A stretch of 63,871 nt of DNA, the filler included, from Reclinomonas americana ATCC 50394 (taxonomy: Eukaryota), in the NCBI GenBank assembly GCA_048213135.1. It is 35 parts of 35 records of this genome, joined end to end, with 100 filler letters (N's around TTAATTAATTAA, not from the genome) between each part and the next. Parts side by side here need not be neighbours in the genome. Positions count along the whole stretch, not along the records: positions 25,111 to 26,944 come from AFZH01025172.1; 34 more parts are not named here. One strand, written 5' to 3'. The notes beneath the pieces are model-generated. The model was not told the DNA's origin. It saw only the letters and a list, made by a program, of their open reading frames with translations, and searched no databases. The translations under genes and the position numbers were made by a program. Shown here piece after piece: positions 13,640-60,790 of this stretch. Within the stretch, counting starts at the first letter, position 1. Each line of letters begins with the position of its first letter.

Positions 13640-14149
13640 CTGGAAGCGGATGGGCCGGACGTCCTCATGGAGCGCCTGCGGGCACAGGATCCGGTGACCG
13701 CGGCGCGCATCGACCCCCGCAACGGTCGACGTGTCGTCCGCGCGCTGGAGGTCCTCGAGCAGGGCGGGGCCACGCACGGCGCTGCGCTCCCCGAGCACCC
13801 CACGCTCTGGCACCCGCACACCCGCATCATCGGTCTGCAGGTCGATCGCGCGGCACTGGTCGAACGCCTCGATGCCCGTGTCGAGAGGATGTGGGCGACG
13901 GGGCTCGTCGATGAGGTCACCGGCCTTCGCCGTCACGGCCTCGAGGGCGGCGTGACCGCGAGTCGCGCGATCGGCTACGCGCAGGCGCTCGGACAGCTCG
14001 ACGGTCGACTGTCCGAAGCAGAGGCGATCGCCGAGACCCAGGCACTGACGAGACGCTACGCCCGACGCCAGGTCTCCTGGTTCAAGCGGTACCGCGAGGC
14101 CGAATGGCACGATGCACCCGCGGGCGTCGACAGGCTCCTCGACGTCTGA
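13640..14149 (+). CDS. miaA: tRNA dimethylallyltransferase, 3' part (actinobacterial)
   Basis: Motifs [41 protein letters not shown] and [12 protein letters not shown]. Confidence 0.95.
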
Positions 14150-14186
14150 AGGATCGGATGTCGGACGTCGATGCCACTCTGTCGGA

Positions 14187-14714
14187 ATGACGACACACTT
14201 CTTCACGGCGTCCAGCCTCGACGGGTTCATCGCCACATCCGAGCATTCGCTCGACTGGCTGCTGAAGCAGGACATCGATCCGGAGGGGCCGATGGCCTAT
14301 CAGGGGTTCGAGAAGACGATCGGTGCGCTGGCGATGGGCGCCTCGACCTATGAATGGGTCATGCGACACGAGGAGGGCCGCTGGGGGTACACCCAGCCGG
14401 CGTGGGTGTTCACGCATCGGGACCTCGAGGTTCCCGATGGGGCCGACATCCGTCTGACCCGGGCCGACATCGCCGAGGTGCATGCCGAGATGGTCGAGGC
14501 CGCGGGCGACAAGGACCTCTGGGTCATCGGGGGAGGAGACCTCGCGGGGCAGTTCGCTGATGCCGGACTGCTCGACGAGGTGTGGGTGCAGTATGCGCCG
14601 GTCACGCTCGGTTCCGGAGCTCCGCTGCTGCCGCGTGAACTCGACCTCGAACTCCTCGACGTCGCCCGCAATCGCAGCTTTCTCTGCGGTCGGTATCGGG
14701 TGCTGCGCGCCTGA
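14187..14714 (+). CDS. Dihydrofolate reductase family (RibD C-terminal-like) protein
   Basis: Motifs ASSLDGFIA..LDWL, MGASTY, WVIGGGDLAGQF..GLLDE and PVTLGSG.PL. Confidence 0.9.
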   Translation: MTTHFFTASSLDGFIATSEHSLDWLLKQDIDPEGPMAYQGFEKTIGALAMGASTYEWVMRHEEGRWGYTQPAWVFTHRDLEVPDGADIRLTRADIAEVHAEMVEAAGDKDLWVIGGGDLAGQFADAGLLDEVWVQYAPVTLGSGAPLLPRELDLELLDVARNRSFLCGRYRVLRA

Positions 14715-14837
14715 GCGGCGTGGACCGGGCCGCCCTCNNNNNNNNNNNNNNNNNNNNNNNNNNNNNNNNNNNNNNNNNNNNTTAATTAATTAANNNNNNN
14801 NNNNNNNNNNNNNNNNNNNNNNNNNNNNNNNNNNNNN

Positions 14838-18721: not shown

Positions 18722-19306
18722 AGGCGGCGCCTCGGGCGTGCGCCTGGAGGTGATCAGGATGGCGTCGGCCTGCGCCCCGTAGGAGATCAGGCAGCCTTCC
18801 TTGTCGAGGGTGAAATCGTCGCCCTCGCGCACCACGCCGCAGATCGACGAGCGCAAATCACCGCCGACGCCGCCGCCTTCGGTGGTGGCCGAGGCGAGCA
18901 GCAGCTGCTCGCGGGCGATGCGCGCCATGAAGGAGGCATGCCAGGGATCGTCATTGCAATGCACGACCAGGCTCGACGCCTTGATCTGGTGCATTGCGTA
19001 GATCATGCCGGTCGATGCGCAAGCCTGGGCCAGCACCGAGCAGATCTCGGCGATGGTCGCGTGGCTGGCCTCCTCGCCGCCATGGGCCGCCGGGATCATG
19101 ATCCCCAGCAGGCGCTCGCGCTTCAGGGCCTCGAAGGCCTCGTGCGGGAAGCGCGACCTGGCGTCGACATCGCCGGCGTGCTCGGCCGCGACTTTCGCGA
19201 TCTTGCGCGCCTTGGCGATCATCGCCTTCTGCGCCTCGGCGCTGGCGCCCGATGTCTCGGCGGTCAGCTGATAGCCGGCATCGGCCAGGCGGGCGAGCGT
19301 CGTCAT
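18722..19306 (-). CDS. Acyl-CoA dehydrogenase family protein, 5' part (alphaproteobacterial)
   Basis: Motifs DVDARSRFPHEAFEAL, ACASTGMIYAMH and LLASATTE.G.GGD. The start overlaps the carrier-protein stop (TGATG). Confidence 0.9.
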
Positions 19307-19551
19307 CAGACGTGCTCGCTCTGGATGGTGCGGATCGCGTTCTCGATCGCGGCGATCGAGGCGAAGTTGCGCCGGTTCATCATGTTGTCGGGGAACTCGA
19401 CCTCGAAAGCCTCTTCGAGCGCCATCATCAGCTCGACGGTGCCGAAGGAGGTGAGGCCGGCATTGTAGAGATCGGCCTCGTCGGCGAGGGTTGCGACATC
19501 GACCGGCAGCTTGCCGGTGGTCTTGAGGATTTCGCGGATCCTGGTCTTCAT
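19306..19551 (-). CDS. Acyl/aminoacyl carrier protein
   Basis: 81-aa acidic protein with DLYNAGLTSFGTVELMMALEEAFEVEFPD; the phosphopantetheine Ser is in GLTS. Confidence 0.9.
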   Translation of the reverse strand: MKTRIREILKTTGKLPVDVATLADEADLYNAGLTSFGTVELMMALEEAFEVEFPDNMMNRRNFASIAAIENAIRTIQSEHV

Positions 19552-20076
19552 CTTTCGGTCCTGCCCTGTCTGATGCCATCGCTGCTGCGGTGCAGCCCCG
19601 TTTTGGCTCCGCCCTCGACGCGCAGCGGCATACGCTGGCGCAGGGCGCTCGCGATCGCCGTCCGTGACGCTTGGGTCGGTTGGTTTGACGCCGTGTTGTT
19701 CGTTGCGTCAGGCCTAACGCATAAAATTTAAAGTTACCTTGCGCCGGCCATAGAATGACTGGCGTAAGCGCTTCGAGCCTTGGTGTCTGGAGGTGTGGTA
19801 AACGGCTGATTGCAGCGAATACTCGATTTCTAGAGAAATCACCCAGCTGTGGCGGTTGAATAATTGGGGGCCACGCTGCGCTCGGCCACCGGCGCAGGCT
19901 CAGCTCCGGCATCGCCATCACTCGATCCGCTCATGAACCAGAGCAGGGCCGCCGTCTTGATCGAGTAGACGGAGTCNNNNNNNNNNNNNNNNNNNNNNNN
20001 NNNNNNNNNNNNNNNNNNNNTTAATTAATTAANNNNNNNNNNNNNNNNNNNNNNNNNNNNNNNNNNNNNNNNNNNN

Positions 20077-21914: not shown

Positions 21915-22047
21915 NNNNNNNNNNNNNNNNNNNNNNNNNNNNNNNNNNNNNNNNNNNNTTAATTAATTAANNNNNNNNNNNNNNNNNNNNNNNNNNNNNN
22001 NNNNNNNNNNNNNNGATCATGACCGCGAGGGTGCCTCTTGCCAATGC

Positions 22048-22734
22048 TCAGTGCCGCGAGGCGCTCCGGCCGAACAGGGCGGAAGGCCAGAAACTGCGCT
22101 GCAGCGAGAGCGACAGGGTTGCGAAGCTGCGGGCATTGTCCATTGCCTCGTCCAGCAGGGTGAACGGCGTCGGCGCGCCGGTGGCGATCCTGCCCTCGAC
22201 ATCGGCGTAGCCGCCGACCATCTCGGCCTCGAACTTGCGCGCGAGGTTCCGCATCGCGGCGTTCTCGGGCAGGCAGGTCATGTAGAGCGTCCTGATATTG
22301 CGGTTGCGCGCCGCCGTGATCAGGCGGCTGAACAGCTCTCCGCCGATGCCGCGCCGGCGCCAGGTGCGTTCGACGCTGAAGGCGGCTTCGCCAGTCTGGA
22401 TGACGATTTCCTCCAGCCCGCGCAATTCGGCGGCGCCGCGGACCTCGCCGGCCTCGACATAGGCATAGACCAGCCCGCCGACACCAAAGGTGGTTTCGGC
22501 GTAGTTCCGGAGGAAATCATCCGTGACCGCCGTGCCGAAACGCTCGCGCCGTGTGTCGGCGTCGAGGCGAAGCAGATGGGCGGTGAAGAGATCGCGCTCG
22601 GCAGGCCAGAGACGCCTGACCTCGCCGTGCCTGGCCTTGGCGCCAGGCTTGATCGAACGATTCAATTGCAGCTCCTGTGAAAGCGCTGATGGCGCTGCCC
22701 AAAGGAGGCGTGTCTTCCCTAACTCGGAGACCAA
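22048..22734 (-). CDS. GNAT family N-acetyltransferase (start uncertain)
   Basis: Motifs HLLRLD..R..RFG, EAAFSVE..WRRRGIG..L and CLPENAAMRNLARKF. Confidence 0.85.
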   Translation of the reverse strand: MVSELGKTRLLWAAPSALSQELQLNRSIKPGAKARHGEVRRLWPAERDLFTAHLLRLDADTRRERFGTAVTDDFLRNYAETTFGVGGLVYAYVEAGEVRGAAELRGLEEIVIQTGEAAFSVERTWRRRGIGGELFSRLITAARNRNIRTLYMTCLPENAAMRNLARKFEAEMVGGYADVEGRIATGAPTPFTLLDEAMDNARSFATLSLSLQRSFWPSALFGRSASRH

Positions 22735-22827
22735 GATGCGCTTCCGATCTGGGAATACAAGTGGCGCGATTGCGGCAATTTACAGCTAAATGCCTGTAAA
22801 AATGGCCGGAATGGTCAAGGCTGCGCG

Positions 22828-23424
22828 CTAACGCCACATGGTGGCGATCGAGGCGGCCAACGCCAGAGCAAGCCCGATATTGAGGGCGCGCCATTGCCAG
22901 GCCTGCGTCAGCAGCCGTGCCAGAAGCAGTCCGGCGACGCACCAGAGCATCAGCGACAGCAGCGCGAGCACGCCGAAGACGGTGCCGAGCAGGGCGGCGA
23001 GCTCTCCTGCGCCGCGGGCAAGCTCGCCGAAGGAGGCGGCGGCGCCGAGCGTCATGGCCCAGCCCTTGGGATTCTGCAGCTGGATCCAGAGCGCGCCGAG
23101 GAAGCTCGTCGGCCTGGCGATGCTCCTGTCGAGATGCGGGGGGCCGCTGCGGCCGATCCTGACGGCGAGCCAGAGCAGATAGGCCGAACCGGCGAGCTTC
23201 ATCGCGAATTCGAGCGATGGCATCGCCAGCAGCAGGCCGGCGAGCCCGGCCGCGGCCGCGACAGCCATTCCGGCCAATCCGATCGCGACGCCGATCATGA
23301 AGGGCAGGGAACGGCGAAAACCGAAATGGGCGCCGGAGGCCGTGGCGAGCGTGGTGGTGGCGCCCGGTGTCACGGTGGAGATGGCGGCGAAGGCGATGAG
23401 CGGCAGGAATGATTCCGGTGACAT
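22828..23424 (-). CDS. LysE family translocator
   Basis: TPG motif, G..YLLWLA and QLQNPKGW; hydrophobic throughout; divergent from a LysR gene. Confidence 0.92.
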   Translation of the reverse strand: MSPESFLPLIAFAAISTVTPGATTTLATASGAHFGFRRSLPFMIGVAIGLAGMAVAAAAGLAGLLLAMPSLEFAMKLAGSAYLLWLAVRIGRSGPPHLDRSIARPTSFLGALWIQLQNPKGWAMTLGAAASFGELARGAGELAALLGTVFGVLALLSLMLWCVAGLLLARLLTQAWQWRALNIGLALALAASIATMWR

Positions 23425-23512
23425 GGGCGGCTCCGGCTAGAAGCCATCGCATTAGGTTCGTCCGACGAATGATGAAAACGAATGTTGAAGCGATCAGGCA
23501 TTAGCATCGATA

Positions 23513-23851
23513 ATGCTAGACATGCGCAATCTCGACCTCGAGCTGATCCGGGCCTTCGTCGCCGTCGCCGACCATGGCAGCATGACCATCGCCGGCAATG
23601 CGCTGCATCTGACGCAGAGCGCCGTCAGCCAGCAGATCATGCGGCTGGAGCGACGGCTCGGGCAGGCTCTCTTCCTGCGAGAGCGGCGCGGGCTGAAGCT
23701 GACGGCCTCGGGCGATCGCCTGCTCGCCAAGGCACGCCGGCTGATCGGTCTCAATGACGAGATCTGGGCCGAGATGACGACGGGCTGCGCCGGCACGGTG
23801 CGGCTTGGCGTGCCCTATGACCTCGTCGGCACCGCGCTCGCGCCGATCCTG
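23513..23851 (+). CDS. LysR family transcriptional regulator, 5' part
   Basis: LDLELIRAFVAVAD.GS.T.A...LHLTQSAVSQQI.RLE..LG..LF.R. Confidence 0.95.
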
Positions 23852-23951
23852 NNNNNNNNNNNNNNNNNNNNNNNNNNNNNNNNNNNNNNNNNNNNTTAAT
23901 TAATTAANNNNNNNNNNNNNNNNNNNNNNNNNNNNNNNNNNNNNNNNNNNN

Positions 23952-24038
23952 CTCGCCGGACGTCCGGACGCGGCCGAGGCGGCGATGCGCGATCATCTCG
24001 CCGGATCCGAGGCGCTGCTGCGCGGCTTCCTGATGTGA
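23952..24038 (+). CDS. C-terminal end of a probable GntR/FadR (FCD) regulator
   Basis: LAGRPDAAEAAMRDHLAGSEALLRGFLM* resembles the A...MxxHL ending of FCD domains. Confidence 0.55.
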   Translation, partial: LAGRPDAAEAAMRDHLAGSEALLRGFLM

Positions 24039-24063
24039 GGGCCCGGCGGCTCACGTCACCGGA

Positions 24064-24963
24064 TCAGCGGTCGTCGTATCCCCAGCGGATGCCGAGCGCG
24101 CCCGGACCGAAGTCCCGACGCGTCTGATGCACCGAGGCCTGCGGTCGGAGCGGGCTGTACTCCGTCCCGTCCGTCGACTCGGTCCGCTCGAGCTCGTCGA
24201 GCCAGTCCGGGACCGCGTCCTCATGGAATCGCGTCCACAGGACGAGGTCGCGGATGGGACGCACGACGAAGGCGCCGGTCTCGGGCTGCGAGGTGTACTC
24301 CCCGTGCCCTTCCATCGTGACCTCGATCATCGTCGTCGCGCCGAGCGTGAGCGGCTGGTCGAGCTTCAGCACGTATGCGTACACGTGCTCGCTGACGTGG
24401 AGGTGATCGCGGACCATCCGCGCCCCTCGTACCGTCATCTCCGGGCGGTCGATGGTGTCCTCCGTCGACAGCAGCGTGTACGTCACGTGGTCGACGGTCG
24501 TGGGGATCACGGACTGGATCAGGGTCTGGGCGGCGCGCCGGCGCAGGTAGCCGTCGGCGGACACATCTGCGATCACATGCGTCGAGAGCTCCCGGGTGAT
24601 GTCGAGCGGCGGCGCATCGAGGATCTCGAGCGTCTCGGACAGCGCCCGGGTGACCTGCTCCTCCGTGAAGGGGTTGCGGGGTTCGTGTAGCGCTCCCAGC
24701 CGCACCCGCTCCGGCACCAGGCCGCCGAGAGCTCCCGGCGGCATGCTGAGCAGTCGTTCGATGTCCTCGACGGCAGCGAGCGAGGCCGCTCCCTCGGGCG
24801 TGCGCTCCCCGGAGCGCCAGTAACTGAGGGTCGCGATCGAGACGGGGTTGGCGCGGGCGACCAGTCGGCGCTGCAGCGACGAGAGCGAGATGCCGCTCGC
24901 GGTGACCGCCGCTCCGAACGCACTGCTGAACGAGTCTCGTCCGTCGGGAACCTCCGCTGCCAT
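24064..24963 (-). CDS. Actinobacterial protein with N-terminal XRE-like HTH
   Basis: 299-aa ORF with a GAGG-type RBS. SLSSLQRRL....PVSIATLSYWRSGERTP is HTH-like. Confidence 0.7.
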   Translation of the reverse strand: MAAEVPDGRDSFSSAFGAAVTASGISLSSLQRRLVARANPVSIATLSYWRSGERTPEGAASLAAVEDIERLLSMPPGALGGLVPERVRLGALHEPRNPFTEEQVTRALSETLEILDAPPLDITRELSTHVIADVSADGYLRRRAAQTLIQSVIPTTVDHVTYTLLSTEDTIDRPEMTVRGARMVRDHLHVSEHVYAYVLKLDQPLTLGATTMIEVTMEGHGEYTSQPETGAFVVRPIRDLVLWTRFHEDAVPDWLDELERTESTDGTEYSPLRPQASVHQTRRDFGPGALGIRWGYDDR

Positions 24964-25110
24964 TCCAGCCTCCTCTCCCCGACGATAGTCCCGTCAGCGG
25001 TCGAACCCCCNNNNNNNNNNNNNNNNNNNNNNNNNNNNNNNNNNNNNNNNNNNNTTAATTAATTAANNNNNNNNNNNNNNNNNNNNNNNNNNNNNNNNNN
25101 NNNNNNNNNN

Positions 25111-26944
25111 GGTGCAACGTTTGCTGCAAGTAGCGAGTGAGAAAGAGACAATTTTGGCCTGTAACTAAAAGCAGCGCAGCTGCCACACGAACCTTCGCTA
25201 ATTGAGAATGTCTGGCTGTACACTCCGCCATGGCTGTCGTCCGTCTGCACTCGCACCAGCAAATTGTTACCCGTCAAGCCCGCGCCGCCTTGTACGGCCA
25301 CGAGCTGGTTGCCCGTGATAGAGAAGCTGCTTGCATTTGCTCCACCGGTGATGCTGTAGGTGAAGCTCTGGCAGCAATTGGCATCCGTGGTCGTAAAGGT
25401 TCCAACGACAGTCCCCGAGGGTGCGGGCACAGGTGTGTAAAGAAGTGACGACAGAGCGATGGCCGTGGGGACAACATTGGCTGCGGCAACGCGAGAGCGG
25501 AAGTGAGAATGAGAAAGGAACACAACGTGCAGTGCAAGTTGATGAGCAGCGCCAAACCTTCGTCAAGAACAAACGCCTTGCTGAATGTTCCACCAGCTCC
25601 ATCGTTGGTGCGAATGGTCACATGCAAGCTGTTGCCGGTGAGGCCATTCACGCTCGACACAAGCTGTGAGCCGACGATGGCGAACTTGGCCGCATCAGCA
25701 CCGCCAGTGATCGTGTATGTGAACGACTGACAGCAGTTGCCGTCGGTAGTTGTCAGCGAGCCGATGACTCCGTTCAGCGCCAGCGGTGGCGTGTAAGTCA
25801 GTGTCGACAAGGTAATGTCGGATGGAACGAGATTGACTGCGCGCACAATGTGAGCAACCAGAGTAGTCAAGACGCACCCGACAGCATCCACAACGCAACT
25901 TTCGTTGATGTAGAATGTCTTGTCAAACGAGCCACCGAAACCATCGGTGAGCCGCACAGTCACCTCGAGATTCATGCCGGTCAGACCACCCATTACGTTA
26001 GTCCGCAGTTGAGCACCGGCGATCAAGAACTTGGCCATGTCTGCGCCGCCGACCAAGCTGAAAACAAACGTTTGACAACAGTTTGCGTCCACGGCTGAAA
26101 AGTTGCCGACTGCCGTATTAGCAAAGGCCGGTGGTGTATACGTCGTCGAGTCCAGAAGAATATCCGTGGGAGGCATGTTGGCTGCGCGTGTGAACAGCGA
26201 GTGATACCACAATCAGCACCACACTTATCACACAAACCCGCACACCAACAAACAAACACACACGCTGCTCGCTGTCCCTCTCTCTCTCTCTCTGTGTCTC
26301 GTTCTCTGTACGCACACAAACACGCACCTTCAGAGAGCGTCAGCGTCTTGTCAAACGTCCCACCCGCACCATCATTCGTCCGCACAATGACCACCAGATT
26401 GTTGCCCGTCAGTCCCGCAACATTCACCCGCAGCTGACTGCCACTGATGTTGAACGACGCCGCATTCGCACCACCCACAATGCTGTACGTGAATGTCTGA
26501 CAGCAGTTCGCGTCCACCGTCGACAGCGTGCCCACAACAGTGTTCAGTGGCGCAGGTACCGGCGTGTACAGTGTCGAGCTGATGCTCACATCCGTCGGCG
26601 CAACATTGGCTGCGCCCACCACACCACACCAATCGTGTCAGCAGACATCACCCTCCCTTCTTTTTCCATATTTCCCCTCCCACGCACCTTCATCCACTGT
26701 AAACGTCTTCGAGAACGTGAGCGCCGCTGAGTCTGTCACACGAATCGTCACCACGAGCCCGTTCCCAGTCTGTCCCACATTCGACAGCCGCAGTTGATTG
26801 CCCGCAATGTTGAATGCAGCCGCATTTGCTCCACCAGTAATGGCAAATGTGAACACATCACCAAGATTGCCATCAACGGCAACCAGCGTCCCCACTACCG
26901 CATTCGTTGACAGCGTCGGCGGCACATATGTTGACGACGACAAC
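25111..26944 (-). CDS. Cadherin-like repeat protein, internal fragment, one repeat per exon
   Basis: Exons ..26688, 26609-26328, 26181-25900, 25836-25558, 25480-25193 and 25123..; all introns are GT-AG phase 1. Each exon reads N.APTDI.LS....VGTL...D....FTY.I.GG....F.I.G.QL......VRT.D..G..F.K.F...E. Confidence 0.85.
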
Positions 26945-55183: not shown

Positions 55184-56987
55184 GTTCGCCGACAGCCCGA
55201 TATTCGTCGGCGCCACATTGCCTACAACACACGGCAGAGTCAGCTGACTGCATCGTGATTCACAAACACAAGCTGCGGCACGCACTCTCGTTGAACGTCA
55301 GTGTCTTGCTCACGCTGCCGCCGTGTCCGTCGTCCGACGTGATCGTCACTTGCACACCGTTGCCAGACAGGCCGCCACCACCCACATTCGCCACCAGTTG
55401 AGAGCCACTCACACTGAACTTGCCGCTGTCGGCACCGCCGCTGATCGTGTACGTCGGCGTCTGGCAGCAGTTGGCATCCACCGTCGACAGCGTGCAAATC
55501 ACACTTCCCAGTGTGGCCGGCGGCACATATGTAGTCGAGCTGCAGTTGATGTTGGTCGGCGCAACGTTGGCTGCGCGCATATCACAGCAGGTCAGTTGGT
55601 TGTGTGTGACACAGGGAGAAGAATGATTCCCTTTCCATTTCTCTCTTCCTCTCTCCTCCTCACCTTCATCAATCACAAAAGTCCGATCAAACGTCTGACT
55701 CGTGCTATCCGTCACTCGCACCGTCACCGTCAGGCTGTTGCCTGTCTGGCCGGCGTTGCGTAGCACCAGATTGTTGCCGCCTGCAATGTTGAACAGCGCG
55801 GCATTGGCGCCGCCTTGCACACTGAACGTGAATGTGTCGCCCACATTGGGATCCACGCCGCTCAGCACGCCCACGACCGTGTTCGCTGCCGCCGTCGGTG
55901 GCACGTACGTCACCGACGTGATCAAGATATTGGTGGGTGGTTGAGGCGCTGTGTGCGTGCGCATGCACGTAGAGTGTCAGGCAATGCAGAAGGCAACTCA
56001 GACGAAAGGGAGGACGCAACTGTCGGTGATGGTGAATGTTTTCTCGAAGAACAGCGCCCCGGTGCCGTCATCGGTCGTGCGAATCACCACTTGCCATCCT
56101 GTGCCGACCTGTCCGTTGGCTGTGATGCGCAACTGGTTGCCAGAGATGTTGAAAAGAGCGGCGTTGACGCCGCCGGTGATGGTGTAGGTGAACGACTGGC
56201 AGCAGTTGACATCGGTGGTGGACAGCGTGCCGATCACAGTGTTGGCCATTGTCGTTGGCGGGCTGTACGATGTTGACGAGAGTGAAACGTCCGTCGGTGC
56301 AACGTTCACTGCGAAACGCGCAGTGAGCAGAGATGGCGACCGTAAGTTATCACGAGGCAGGAAACGTACCTTCGCTGAACAGGAACGTCTTGTTGAAAGT
56401 TCCACCGTGCAAGTCGTCGGTCTTCACAGTGACTTGCAAGTTGTTGCCGGTGAGATTGGCAACGGCGCTGCGCAGCTGGTTGCCGTTCACCTCGAACTTG
56501 GCCTGATCCGCGCCACCGATAATCGTGTACACTGGCGACTGGCAACAGTTGACATCCGCAGTAGTCAGCGTGGCCAACACGCCGTGCAACCCGGTGTGCG
56601 GTGTATACAGCAGCGTAGACGGAGTGATGTCAGTCGGTGCCACATTGGCTGTCAACCGACAAGCGAAACTTTAGCGCACGTGTCCAAGCAATCAATCTCA
56701 AGAACGTGCTCAACAAACCTTCGTCAATGGTGAACAATTTGGTGAAAGCAAGACCGCCACTGTCAGTGACGCGAATCTGCACTTGCAATCCGTTGCCCGT
56801 CTGACCAGCAGATGTGAGCTGCAGTTGCGCACCCGAAATGTTGAATAGGGCCGCACTGGCGCCGCCCACGATCGCAAATGTCGCAGTGTCACCAGTATTA
56901 TTGTCAACCATCGCCAGTGTGCCCACAACGCTGTTGGCAGCCGCTGTGGGTGGCGTGTACGTGCTCGAGGATAGAGTGATGTCGGTC
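55184..56987 (-). CDS. Cadherin-like repeat protein, internal fragment 2, one repeat per exon
   Basis: Exons ..56719, 56648-56370, 56308-56021, 55948-55664, 55570-55286 and 55221..; all introns are phase-1 GT-AG. Same consensus as 25111-26944. Confidence 0.85.
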
Positions 56988-58987: not shown

Positions 58988-60790
58988 CTGGCCAACGCCA
59001 CTGTGAGCGTGGCCAGTGTCAGCTCGGATCGCACCAGCGCCGCCGTCAATGTCACCACGACTGGTGCGGCTGGCGGCTCGTATCAGCTGTGTGCTCGACT
59101 GGACAGCAACTCGCCGTACTTTGCGGTGGGTTCGCTGAGCGTGGCGTCGGTGACGCCGTTTGCTAGCCCGGTGGTGCTGCCAGTGGGTGCGGCCGGCACA
59201 TCGGCTTCGGTCACACTGAATGGCACTGGTCTGCCGAGCAATGTGGTGCAGAACGCAAGCGCCTTTGTGTTGGCCGACTCGTGCCAGCCGCTGACCGGTG
59301 TGGACACGGCGACCACGGTGCAGGCGACGAGTGCCAGCAGCACGCAGATTCAGCTGTCGGTGACGTTCTCGGCTGCCAGCACTGGCGGCTCGAAGCGTCT
59401 GTGCGCACAGTGGACGGCGGGTGCTGGTGAGGCGTATGTGGATTTGGGTGCAGTGTCGCTGCCGCAGCTGACTGGCGTGGTGACGCCGAGCGCGCTGACG
59501 GCGACGACGACGGCGCCACTGCAAGTGGGCGGTGTCGGCCTGACGACGCCGACTGATGTGCGTTTGTCGACGGCAGCATGCGACAGTGCGACGCCACCGG
59601 CGGCGTTTGGCAGCACGACGGTGTCGAGCAGCAGTGCAACTGGCATCAGCCTGAGCACGACTAACTCGGGACCGGCGGGCACAGTGGCGCACTGTGTGTG
59701 TGCAGTATGTGCAAGGCGGCGCGTACGTGTCGGCGGGTGACGTGACGGTTGGCGGTGTGTCGTCGGTGAATGTGCCGGCGGTGGTCGCCGGCAGCTCGCA
59801 GACTGTGGCGGTGAGCGGTGTTTCGCTGGCCAACGTCTCTGGCGTGAGTGCACCGTATGTGGTGGTGGCCGGCACGACGTGCGGCTCGTCGACCACGGTG
59901 ACGCCGGTGGCGGGTGTGACGGTCACGGTTGACACGTCGCAGCAGAGCTCGACGTCGCAGGTGCTGACGGTGAGCGCGACGGCGGGTGCGGCGAGTGGTC
60001 CGGCCGTGTTGTGCTACCGATTGGCGAACGGCTCGACGTATGCCACGGGTCCGAGCATTAGCATTGTGGGTGCGACATCGGCGCCGACTCCGTCGACGGT
60101 GGTGTCTGGCAGCACGAATGTGGCTGGCAGTGTGAACGGTGCCGGCTTTGTGGCTGGATCGAGCCTGGTGATTGCGGCGGCTCCGTGCTCGCTGCTGTCG
60201 GTGTCGAGTCCGCAGGGTGCTGATGGCGCCAGCGTCGATGTGACGGTGACGAGCAGCACGCAGCTGACGCTGTCGGTGTCGGCGGTGGGAACTGCCGGTG
60301 GTGTGTACGACTACTGCTATCGCGCGTCGAGCAGTGCTTCGTTCGCCTCGCTGGGACAGGTGCGCGTTGTGCAGCTGCTGGGTACGTCGCCGTCGGTGGT
60401 GCCGATTGGCGCCACGTCTACGGTGACGCTGGCGGCTGTCGGACTGGCGACGAGTGGCAACACGTTCCGCCTGTCGGGCGACAGCAGCTCGTGTGCCAAC
60501 GTCGGCACGTCGGGTGTGGCTGTGGCGGCGACGGTGGCGATGGACGGTCGGTCAGCGGCGCTGAGTGTGGACACGAGCGGCAGTGGCGTGAGCGGTGGTC
60601 TGCGTGCGCTGTGCGTGCAGTTGGCCGGCAGCAGCACGTACACGTCGATTGGCCAGGTGTCGGTGGCGGCGGTGGCGTCTGTGTCGCCGACGACGCTGGC
60701 GCGCGCCGGTGGACAGCAGTCGCTGTTGGTGAACGGCAGTGGATTGCCGGCCAGTGGCGACAGTGTGACGGTGGTGTTGCGCAGCGGCAG
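58988..60790 (+). CDS. Ser/Thr/Val/Gly-rich IPT/TIG-like repeat surface protein, internal fragment, frameshift near 59690
   Basis: Repeats of about 100 aa ending in YQLCAR, RLCAQ, VCVQY, VLCYR, DYCYR and ALCVQ. Two frames (59003-59740 and 59694 onward) overlap at a (TG)5 tract. Confidence 0.75.

Follow-up and report, generated by a model that had tools for sequence, protein, structure and literature searches.

Cadherin repeats occur in animals in tip-link cadherins and in receptors of the CELSR/Flamingo type, in which they are combined with a GAIN/GPS region and a 7TM domain, and in bacteria in giant adhesins, for example of Rhodopirellula, Stieleria and Bacteroidota, which carry intronless PF00028 arrays of 10-34 repeats and T9SS CHU_C or RTX tails. 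A 2021 review (PMC8164589) assigns nearly all eukaryotic cadherin and cadherin-like domains that it covers to Filozoa and SAR, Thecamonas and a green alga being represented by one entry each. Among non-animals, bacteria, oomycetes, choanoflagellates and Thecamonas are known to possess cadherin-like domains, for which lateral transfer has been suggested (PMC8164589, PMC2926784). Correspondence between domains and exons is by itself a feature documented throughout eukaryotes (PMC6547436), and the question of why exon shuffling should be restricted to Metazoa, and why the modules should be of class 1-1, was raised in an account of animal exon modules (Patthy, 2021; PMC8001218). REJ domains are found in polycystin-1, PKDREJ and sea-urchin REJ proteins, and a protist protein with REJ and GPS has been described from the brown alga Ectocarpus (Esi0130_0068; PMC4700764).

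Here we describe a repeat gene of the jakobid Reclinomonas americana ATCC 50394. The last coding exon of the EF1A gene in this assembly matches the UniRef entry for Reclinomonas americana with 100% identity over 338 residues; the next named EF1A entries of high identity are those of Histiona (87%), Jakoba (84%) and Seculamonas (82%), which places the host among the jakobids (Discoba), a group distant from animals. No published account of the repeat type in jakobids or euglenids was found in a search of open papers by title and beginning of abstract, though supplementary domain tables accompanying the genomes of Euglena or jakobids may include such proteins. The main text of the paper on the Andalucia genome, which is poor in introns, contains no mention of cadherin (PMC7050145).

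Exon structure and sequence constraint

The window, that is, the whole stretch of 63,871 nt that was analysed, is made up of both protist and bacterial contigs, all short and separated by linkers of N's. One contig contained four whole and two partial exons of the repeat gene (Table 1), and the five introns between them, with junctions read from the DNA, all had GT..AG ends and were in phase 1. This confirmed the original prediction that every complete exon is 279-288 nt in length, encodes one repeat and is bounded by phase-1 GT-AG introns. The spliced frame of 466 codons contained no stops, compared with 13 and 19 in the other two frames, and the repeats, with ~93 residues per exon, were 45-63% identical to each other.

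Table 1. Location of the repeat gene and its exons and introns within the window
Feature	Position	Strand	Details
Repeat-gene contig G000:C9705	25111..26944	-	one whole contig
Partial exon, repeat type 23	26688..26944	-	85 aa of cadherin-fold repeat; 5' end truncated at contig edge
Intron	26610..26687	-	phase 1; 78 nt; stop in frame
Exon, one repeat, type 24	26328..26609	-	282 nt; repeat used for fold prediction
Intron	26182..26327	-	phase 1; 146 nt; GA and GT microsatellites inside
Exon, one repeat, type 25	25900..26181	-	282 nt
Intron 3	25837..25899	-	phase 1; 63 nt; GTT-type donor; multiple of three, without stop in window
Exon, one repeat, type 26	25558..25836	-	279 nt
Intron	25481..25557	-	phase 1; 77 nt
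Exon, one repeat, type 27	25193..25480	-	288 nt; weak Pfam Cadherin match, E 0.023
Intron 5	25124..25192	-	phase 1; 69 nt; multiple of three, without stop
Next (sixth) repeat exon	25111..25123	-	first 13 nt
Second window contig, continuing the gene	55184..56987	-	repeat exons of types 28, 29, 36, 37, 14

Seventeen exons were located in sister copies of the gene, all 17 with the same length as in the window and with indels confined to introns. Sixteen of these were compared (1459 codons; one was dropped because of an N); codons differed synonymously in 139 cases and non-synonymously in 30, with 142 of the 171 substitutions in third codon positions. The predominance of silent differences between sister copies indicates that the gene is under constraint (purifying selection). 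Intron 3 was considered as a coding spacer and rejected, its length in three sister copies (61, 62 and 54 nt) not being a multiple of three in two of them. For the array introns in general (n=131) the median length was 70 nt, lengths modulo 3 were distributed 38/42/51, and 18 of the 131 were multiples of three and free of stops. Donor position +3 was T in 56 of 158 repeat exons.

The exon structure could in principle be an artefact, whether through bacterial contamination, decay into a pseudogene or misassembly that inflates the number of repeats; the window does include bacterial contigs, among them both upstream neighbours, and the arrays are gapped and locally inverted. Such an origin is contradicted by the spliceosomal introns, the strong synonymous bias and the absence of stops from 158 exons, by the eukaryotic genes that surround arrays on large contigs rich in introns and by the limited identity of repeats within the contig, and we regard it as exceedingly improbable, even if misassembly may still affect the count and order of repeats. 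The bacterial contaminant contigs (GC 65-70%) are located at window positions 13640-14737, 18722-19976, 22015-25010 and 43707-45522. Genes with large exons for further long proteins of Ig/IPT-like repeats are found at 5853-9648, 9749-11594 and 58988-60790, with 5853-7701 and 7802-9648 representing near-identical copies. Genome-wide, 132 matches to actin-family exons were recorded, with a cluster on contig C60, and an rRNA search gave one match of 1,521 bases, on C1.

Fold and calcium motifs of the repeat

An AlphaFold model of the jakobid repeat, obtained with an alignment of 58 repeats as input, had a pLDDT of 96.7; an earlier fold from five sequences (pLDDT 56) was set aside. The model is a seven-stranded EC beta-sandwich as in the cadherin superfamily. 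In a structural search of 48,161 representative chains, the best 50 matches listed were all animal cadherin EC domains (Z 9.3-11.1, rmsd 2.0-2.9, 11-23% identity over 85-92 residues), in agreement with the cadherin-type fold that had been predicted. A Foldseek search also agreed with this fold, with no match reaching E 0.001, and a PDB profile search with the repeat gave a best E of 0.0036. Comparison with the Pfam cadherin models, suggested as a check, resulted in matches to PF00028 that were weak and below the gathering score (11 of 58 repeats, best E 0.011); in a genome-wide scan no repeat was over the cut-off among the 14 candidates scored. With hundreds of cadherin-fold exons in a jakobid that Pfam misses, surveys of cadherin domains therefore undercount.

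The calcium motifs LDRE and DxND have been given as marks of true cadherins (PMC2926784). We tallied calcium-motif columns for 158 jakobid repeats and 1739 bacterial-type domains. The glutamate of xEN was E in 91% of the bacterial-type domains compared with P in 96% of the jakobid repeats, in which D-x-E ahead of strand F was mostly deleted and the linker E changed to V. xE and DxD are further cadherin calcium motifs; the second D of DxD was kept in 81% of bacterial-type domains, as opposed to N in 98% of jakobid repeats. Jakobid repeats contained a mean of 5.6 D+E, bacterial-type domains 12.2, and a Cys-Cys pair was present in 54 of the 158 jakobid repeats. Most of the calcium motifs expected of the cadherin superfamily are thus lost or changed in the 158 repeats tallied. 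As modelled, the fold of the repeat is that of a cadherin, though most of the defining calcium motifs are missing; based on their loss, the rod of repeats is probably calcium-independent. Since calcium motifs are present in both bacteria and animals, the state of the repeats in Discoba is the derived one.

Relatives of the repeat

The repeat profile matched 12,414 representatives. The best named homologues were from Planctomycetota, Bacteroidota and other bacterial adhesins (31-50% identity), related domains were spread over many bacterial phyla, and strong PF00028 arrays were present in nine of ten profile-matching representatives scanned, some with T9SS or RTX tails, the named ones being bacterial. 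By repeat sequence family, the jakobid repeats belong with the bacterial cadherin-domain adhesins, sharing with them the N-x-A-P-T-D-I-x-L-S start and the core. The claim that the repeats resemble bacterial adhesins more than metazoan EC domains was correct with respect to sequence identity. The calcium motifs that the bacterial adhesins keep (xEN, DxD, D-F/Y-E and D/N-V-N-E) have been lost or changed in jakobid repeats, and the nearest relatives are eukaryotic, euglenid-type proteins.

In single-domain comparison the highest score belonged to a secreted protein, P0064 (104 bits; bacterial-type domains scored at most 83), and P0064 led on to the euglenid-type secreted proteins P0381 and P0383. 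P0383 is EukProt entry GGOE01002849 from Euglena longa, the species to which GGOE01 is assigned in 10.1101/573709, while P0064 and P0381 are termed euglenid-type by their likeness to P0383. All three proteins have the same repeat type as the jakobid, with YxPP, DxN, D-x-E lost (no LDxE) and a shorter linker. They differ in containing 8-9 repeats rather than ~50, followed by Big_5 and other domains with no REJ match.

A first tree was based on 116 rows, comprising 32 jakobid repeats (28 chosen for diversity from 158, plus the four window repeats), 24 euglenid-type and 60 bacterial-type domains (of 150 diverse ones). The 60 bacterial rows fell on one side of a branch with support of 100/96, the bootstrap being unconverged, and jakobid and euglenid rows were intermixed. 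A second tree, extended by repeats from further jakobid genes and by 33 domains encoded at loci in prokaryote genomes and in viruses, had 63 rows on the bacterial side (SH-aLRT 92). Both trees are unrooted, are based on 94-96 columns and are without animal or other eukaryote rows. Nesting of jakobid repeats among bacterial repeats was not seen in either unrooted tree; in the phylogeny of single repeats that had been proposed, the jakobid thus groups with the euglenid-type proteins and apart from bacteria. In viral contigs, an alignment query detected two bacterial-type domains and a single repeat gave no match, while among predicted viral structures there were phage cadherin-domain proteins at 16-29% identity. 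An Atlas search with the Euglena repeats returned cadherin clusters, mostly without taxa.

Transfer of a bacterial adhesin module into this protist lineage itself, where it would then have become intron-bounded and amplified, had been the original prediction, and the bacterial nature of the best named homologues and the wide bacterial distribution of profile matches fit such an event. With euglenid-type proteins as the nearest relatives, however, transfer into the jakobid lineage alone is unlikely: these score best in single-domain comparison, share the derived motifs and are separated along with the jakobid from bacteria in both trees. Furthermore, a strict YxPP..DxN pattern had no matches in prokaryote genomes, metagenome contigs or viral contigs, while it matches 18 of 64 collected loci; a pattern as strict as this could miss a donor. 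Of the predicted scenario, amplification within the jakobid and independence from animals were upheld.

Inheritance of an ancient eukaryotic domain, with no lateral transfer after LECA, retention in Discoba and Filozoa and loss or lack of recognition elsewhere, is rather unlikely. It would account for the presence of the domain in jakobids and euglenids, two deep branches of Discoba, and the type may easily be missed in other groups because Pfam finds no repeats over the cut-off here. A separate bacterial source nevertheless agrees better with 31-50% identity to bacterial repeats versus 11-23% to animal EC domains, and eukaryote-type proteins numbered three among the 294 homologues examined (the best 40-150 per list, by whole-protein score). 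Bacteria are the closest outgroup sampled for the Discoba repeats, and a transfer from them at an early date would be the simplest interpretation and a plausible one, but the trees are short, unrooted and without other eukaryotes. The bacterial source, if any, is probably old.

Growth of the array and the class 1-1 exon module

Phase-1 sites were identified at both ends of 381 of 412 whole repeats in 26 mapped stretches, a number that includes haplotype copies, which are not independent. In the three repeat sets, phase-1 AG and GT were at the expected sites in 158/165, 136/151 and 87/96 repeats. As an internal control, 18 introns downstream of the array were examined, of which 12 were in phase 0, four in phase 1 and two in phase 2. 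Five further repeat exons, in the arrays on G000:C551, C151 and C264, are followed by a GC donor in the phase-1 position where the others have GT.

The duplication pattern of this cassette is directly visible in the arrays. An exon block of types 36-37-14-15-16 is present twice in C31 with ~95% DNA identity, and two exon types alternate in C544 and C656, giving a two-exon periodicity. On G000:C75:140018-158795 there are ~45 very alike repeats in a row, a recent expansion in which the 29 central repeats average 82% protein identity. Judged from these patterns, the arrays grew as single exons and whole blocks of exons were duplicated in tandem, and unequal crossing-over, which symmetric exons survive, is the mechanism that we infer. 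For growth of this kind, gain of one boundary intron in one ancestral repeat would suffice. The predicted class 1-1 module was borne out in its phase-1 bounds; the mechanism seen is tandem duplication.

Like the class 1-1 modules of animals (Patthy, 2021; PMC8001218, in the features given there), the jakobid module is an all-beta extracellular domain with phase-1 bounds, a phase-1 signal-peptide exon and several architectures. It differs in that one module only is involved, duplication is mainly in tandem and EGF repeats are not exon-bounded. The module adjoins NHL, PA14-like, EGF and REJ parts, an arrangement that may reflect insertion into unrelated genes by way of flanking introns but that gene duplication and later change could also yield. 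A short gene (L170:2221-5740 (+), G000:C136) encodes an NHL repeat and three cadherin exons and is flanked by Dus and fatty-acid hydroxylase genes. At L173:3-1384 (-), on G000:C347, one cadherin repeat, which is without exact boundary sites, precedes an EGF/DSL-like array that extends over at least 303 residues with no intron. With an EGF array of 303 residues in one open frame, general class 1-1 modularity in this genome is not supported. The array parallels the class 1-1 modules of animals but is not evidence of exon shuffling on the scale seen there; with a jakobid host and euglenid and bacterial kin, its animal-like layout arose separately from that of animals.

Each exon, being a multiple of three with phase 1-1 bounds, can be skipped in frame, and the cassettes might therefore be subject to regulated alternative splicing that tunes rod length or isoform diversity. 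However, the introns are short (with the median given above) and their sites ordinary, which is expected for constitutive intron-defined splicing, and tandem duplication alone explains the symmetry. Some paralogue junctions are also without an intron: in the genes on C36 and C210, additional introns interrupt many of the repeats and three mapped junctions have none. We thus consider regulated skipping improbable, and tandem duplication remains our explanation for the symmetric exons.

The reconstructed gene and its predicted membrane anchor

At least 150 repeat matches (from 2266 candidates) were found in the 108-Mb assembly, with 259 exact matches to the junction pattern compared with none for the control. 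Near-identical copies of the gene are located on G000:C31, C107, C269 and C283 (90-98% identity among themselves and with the window contig). Their membrane ends form a C31/C107 pair at 98% and a C269/C283 pair that is 64-65% identical to C31, a pattern to be expected if the four copies are probably the two haplotypes of each of two loci. Ectodomain and REJ of C31 and of C269/C283 are 94-96% identical, whereas the last membrane exons are at 64-65%; gene conversion and a recent chimera are candidate readings of this difference.

Exon typing assigned the window contig to types 23-27, and the end of the second window contig (Table 1) and window position 25111 map to neighbouring bases of C31, 182837 and 182838. 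C31 is free of gaps from types 16 to 24 and on through 34, 35, 31, 30, 32 and 33 into the 3' part. Based on this overlap of repeat types, which extends across gapped and partly inverted scaffolds, it is very likely that the window contig is joined to a REJ/membrane anchor. The whole protein would contain roughly 50 repeats, a count reconstructed from overlapping copies.

Directly after the last repeat, with no gap between, a REJ domain was identified (PF02010, 37.7 bits, cut-off 25, E 1.3e-9), and a match was present in all four gene copies. REJ matches also adjoin arrays on C551, C151, C544, C656, C311 and C5360, four of these six being near or under the cut-off; 36 REJ matches were found genome-wide. 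A stop-free spliced model of ~1,140 aa, built by hand, runs from the last repeat through REJ and the motif C-A-T-S-H-M-T-D-F to the first helix, and ends within the first cytosolic loop. This GPS-like motif, read by eye ~35 residues ahead of the first helix, fits the GPS consensus H-L/M-T; Pfam GPS had no match on the intron-broken frames of the 3' part. Further hydrophobic exons lie near the 3' end; three helices were measured (hydropathy 2.57, 2.47 and 1.79) and two more identified by eye. No PLAT or channel domain was matched on the frames scanned, and neither the REJ frame nor any of three pieces of the membrane part gave a significant match in PDB sequence searches.

The 5' end contains a signal-peptide-like exon, ending in phase 1 and conserved in C283 and C269. 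The first repeats hold PA14-like inserts (PA14 17.3 bits, below the cut-off of 24). PA14-like or other inserts within a cadherin repeat were observed at L042:517-1518 (-) on G000:C283 and on C551, C151, C544 and C656, directly after the D-A-N-x-C loop, where other repeats carry the Cys-Cys pair. Upstream of the array, G000:C283:65975-69815 (-) contains a gene whose Gly/Thr-rich repeats are similar to those of fibres in phages or autotransporters. Elsewhere in the window, 47539-49352 (frame 47912-48748, +; G000:C9719) represents the membrane end of a receptor paralogue of the same family; near-identical sequences on C75, C11089, C13191, C4445, C9145 and C5191 suggest a multi-copy gene.

The gene resembles CELSR/Flamingo in its cadherin rod on a putative GPS-type multi-pass anchor, and its repeats have the EC fold of animal cadherins. 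It differs from animal cadherins in its low identity, the absence of calcium motifs and the presence of REJ, and no EGF, LamG, HormR, 7TM or catenin-binding domain was seen. With polycystin-1, PKDREJ and sea-urchin REJ it shares a REJ domain over the cut-off, a GPS-like motif before the first helix and a long Ig-like ectodomain, but the repeats are of cadherin fold and not PKD repeats, there is no PLAT or channel match, the frame ends soon after the last hydrophobic exon and no PDB match backs kinship of the membrane part with the polycystin-1 family.

Proposed function and evolution

Taken as a whole, we consider it likely that the window contig is the middle of a giant jakobid surface-protein gene. 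The predicted layout is a signal-peptide exon, repeats with PA14-like inserts, ~50 cadherin-fold repeats, REJ, the GPS-like motif and several membrane helices with long cytosolic loops. At ~4.5 nm per cadherin domain, the repeats would form a long calcium-independent rod of ~0.2 micrometre, which may keep a tip that probably binds sugars at a distance from the cell while linking it to a putative self-cleaving membrane anchor of REJ/GAIN type. R. americana is described as feeding within a lorica fixed to the substrate (PMC11145212). Likely roles would be in anchoring the cell to its lorica or substrate, or in making contact with the bacteria on which it preys.

A bacterial-type, calcium-binding cadherin domain would have been present early in Discoba, with the calcium motifs lost before the jakobid and euglenid repeats split. 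Among the ancestors of jakobids, a single phase-1 intron located at a domain junction may have given rise to the symmetric cassette, which unequal crossing-over would have copied singly, in pairs and in blocks, and which would have spread to several genes.

We tentatively propose, as a possibility that we hold with some doubt, that Discoba own a calcium-independent branch of the cadherin fold dating from the jakobid-euglenozoan ancestor, which jakobids turned, independently of animals, into a class 1-1 module and into CELSR-like receptors with a rod on a self-cleaving REJ/GAIN multi-pass anchor. If so, this branch would be a counter-example to the notion that class 1-1 modularisation and cadherin-GPS receptors are inventions of the animal lineage. 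The gene family is an independent case of class 1-1, complete with a phase-1 signal-peptide exon, in which one module represents a single event, and its proteins are candidates for adhesion or prey sensing in a loricate, surface-attached flagellate.
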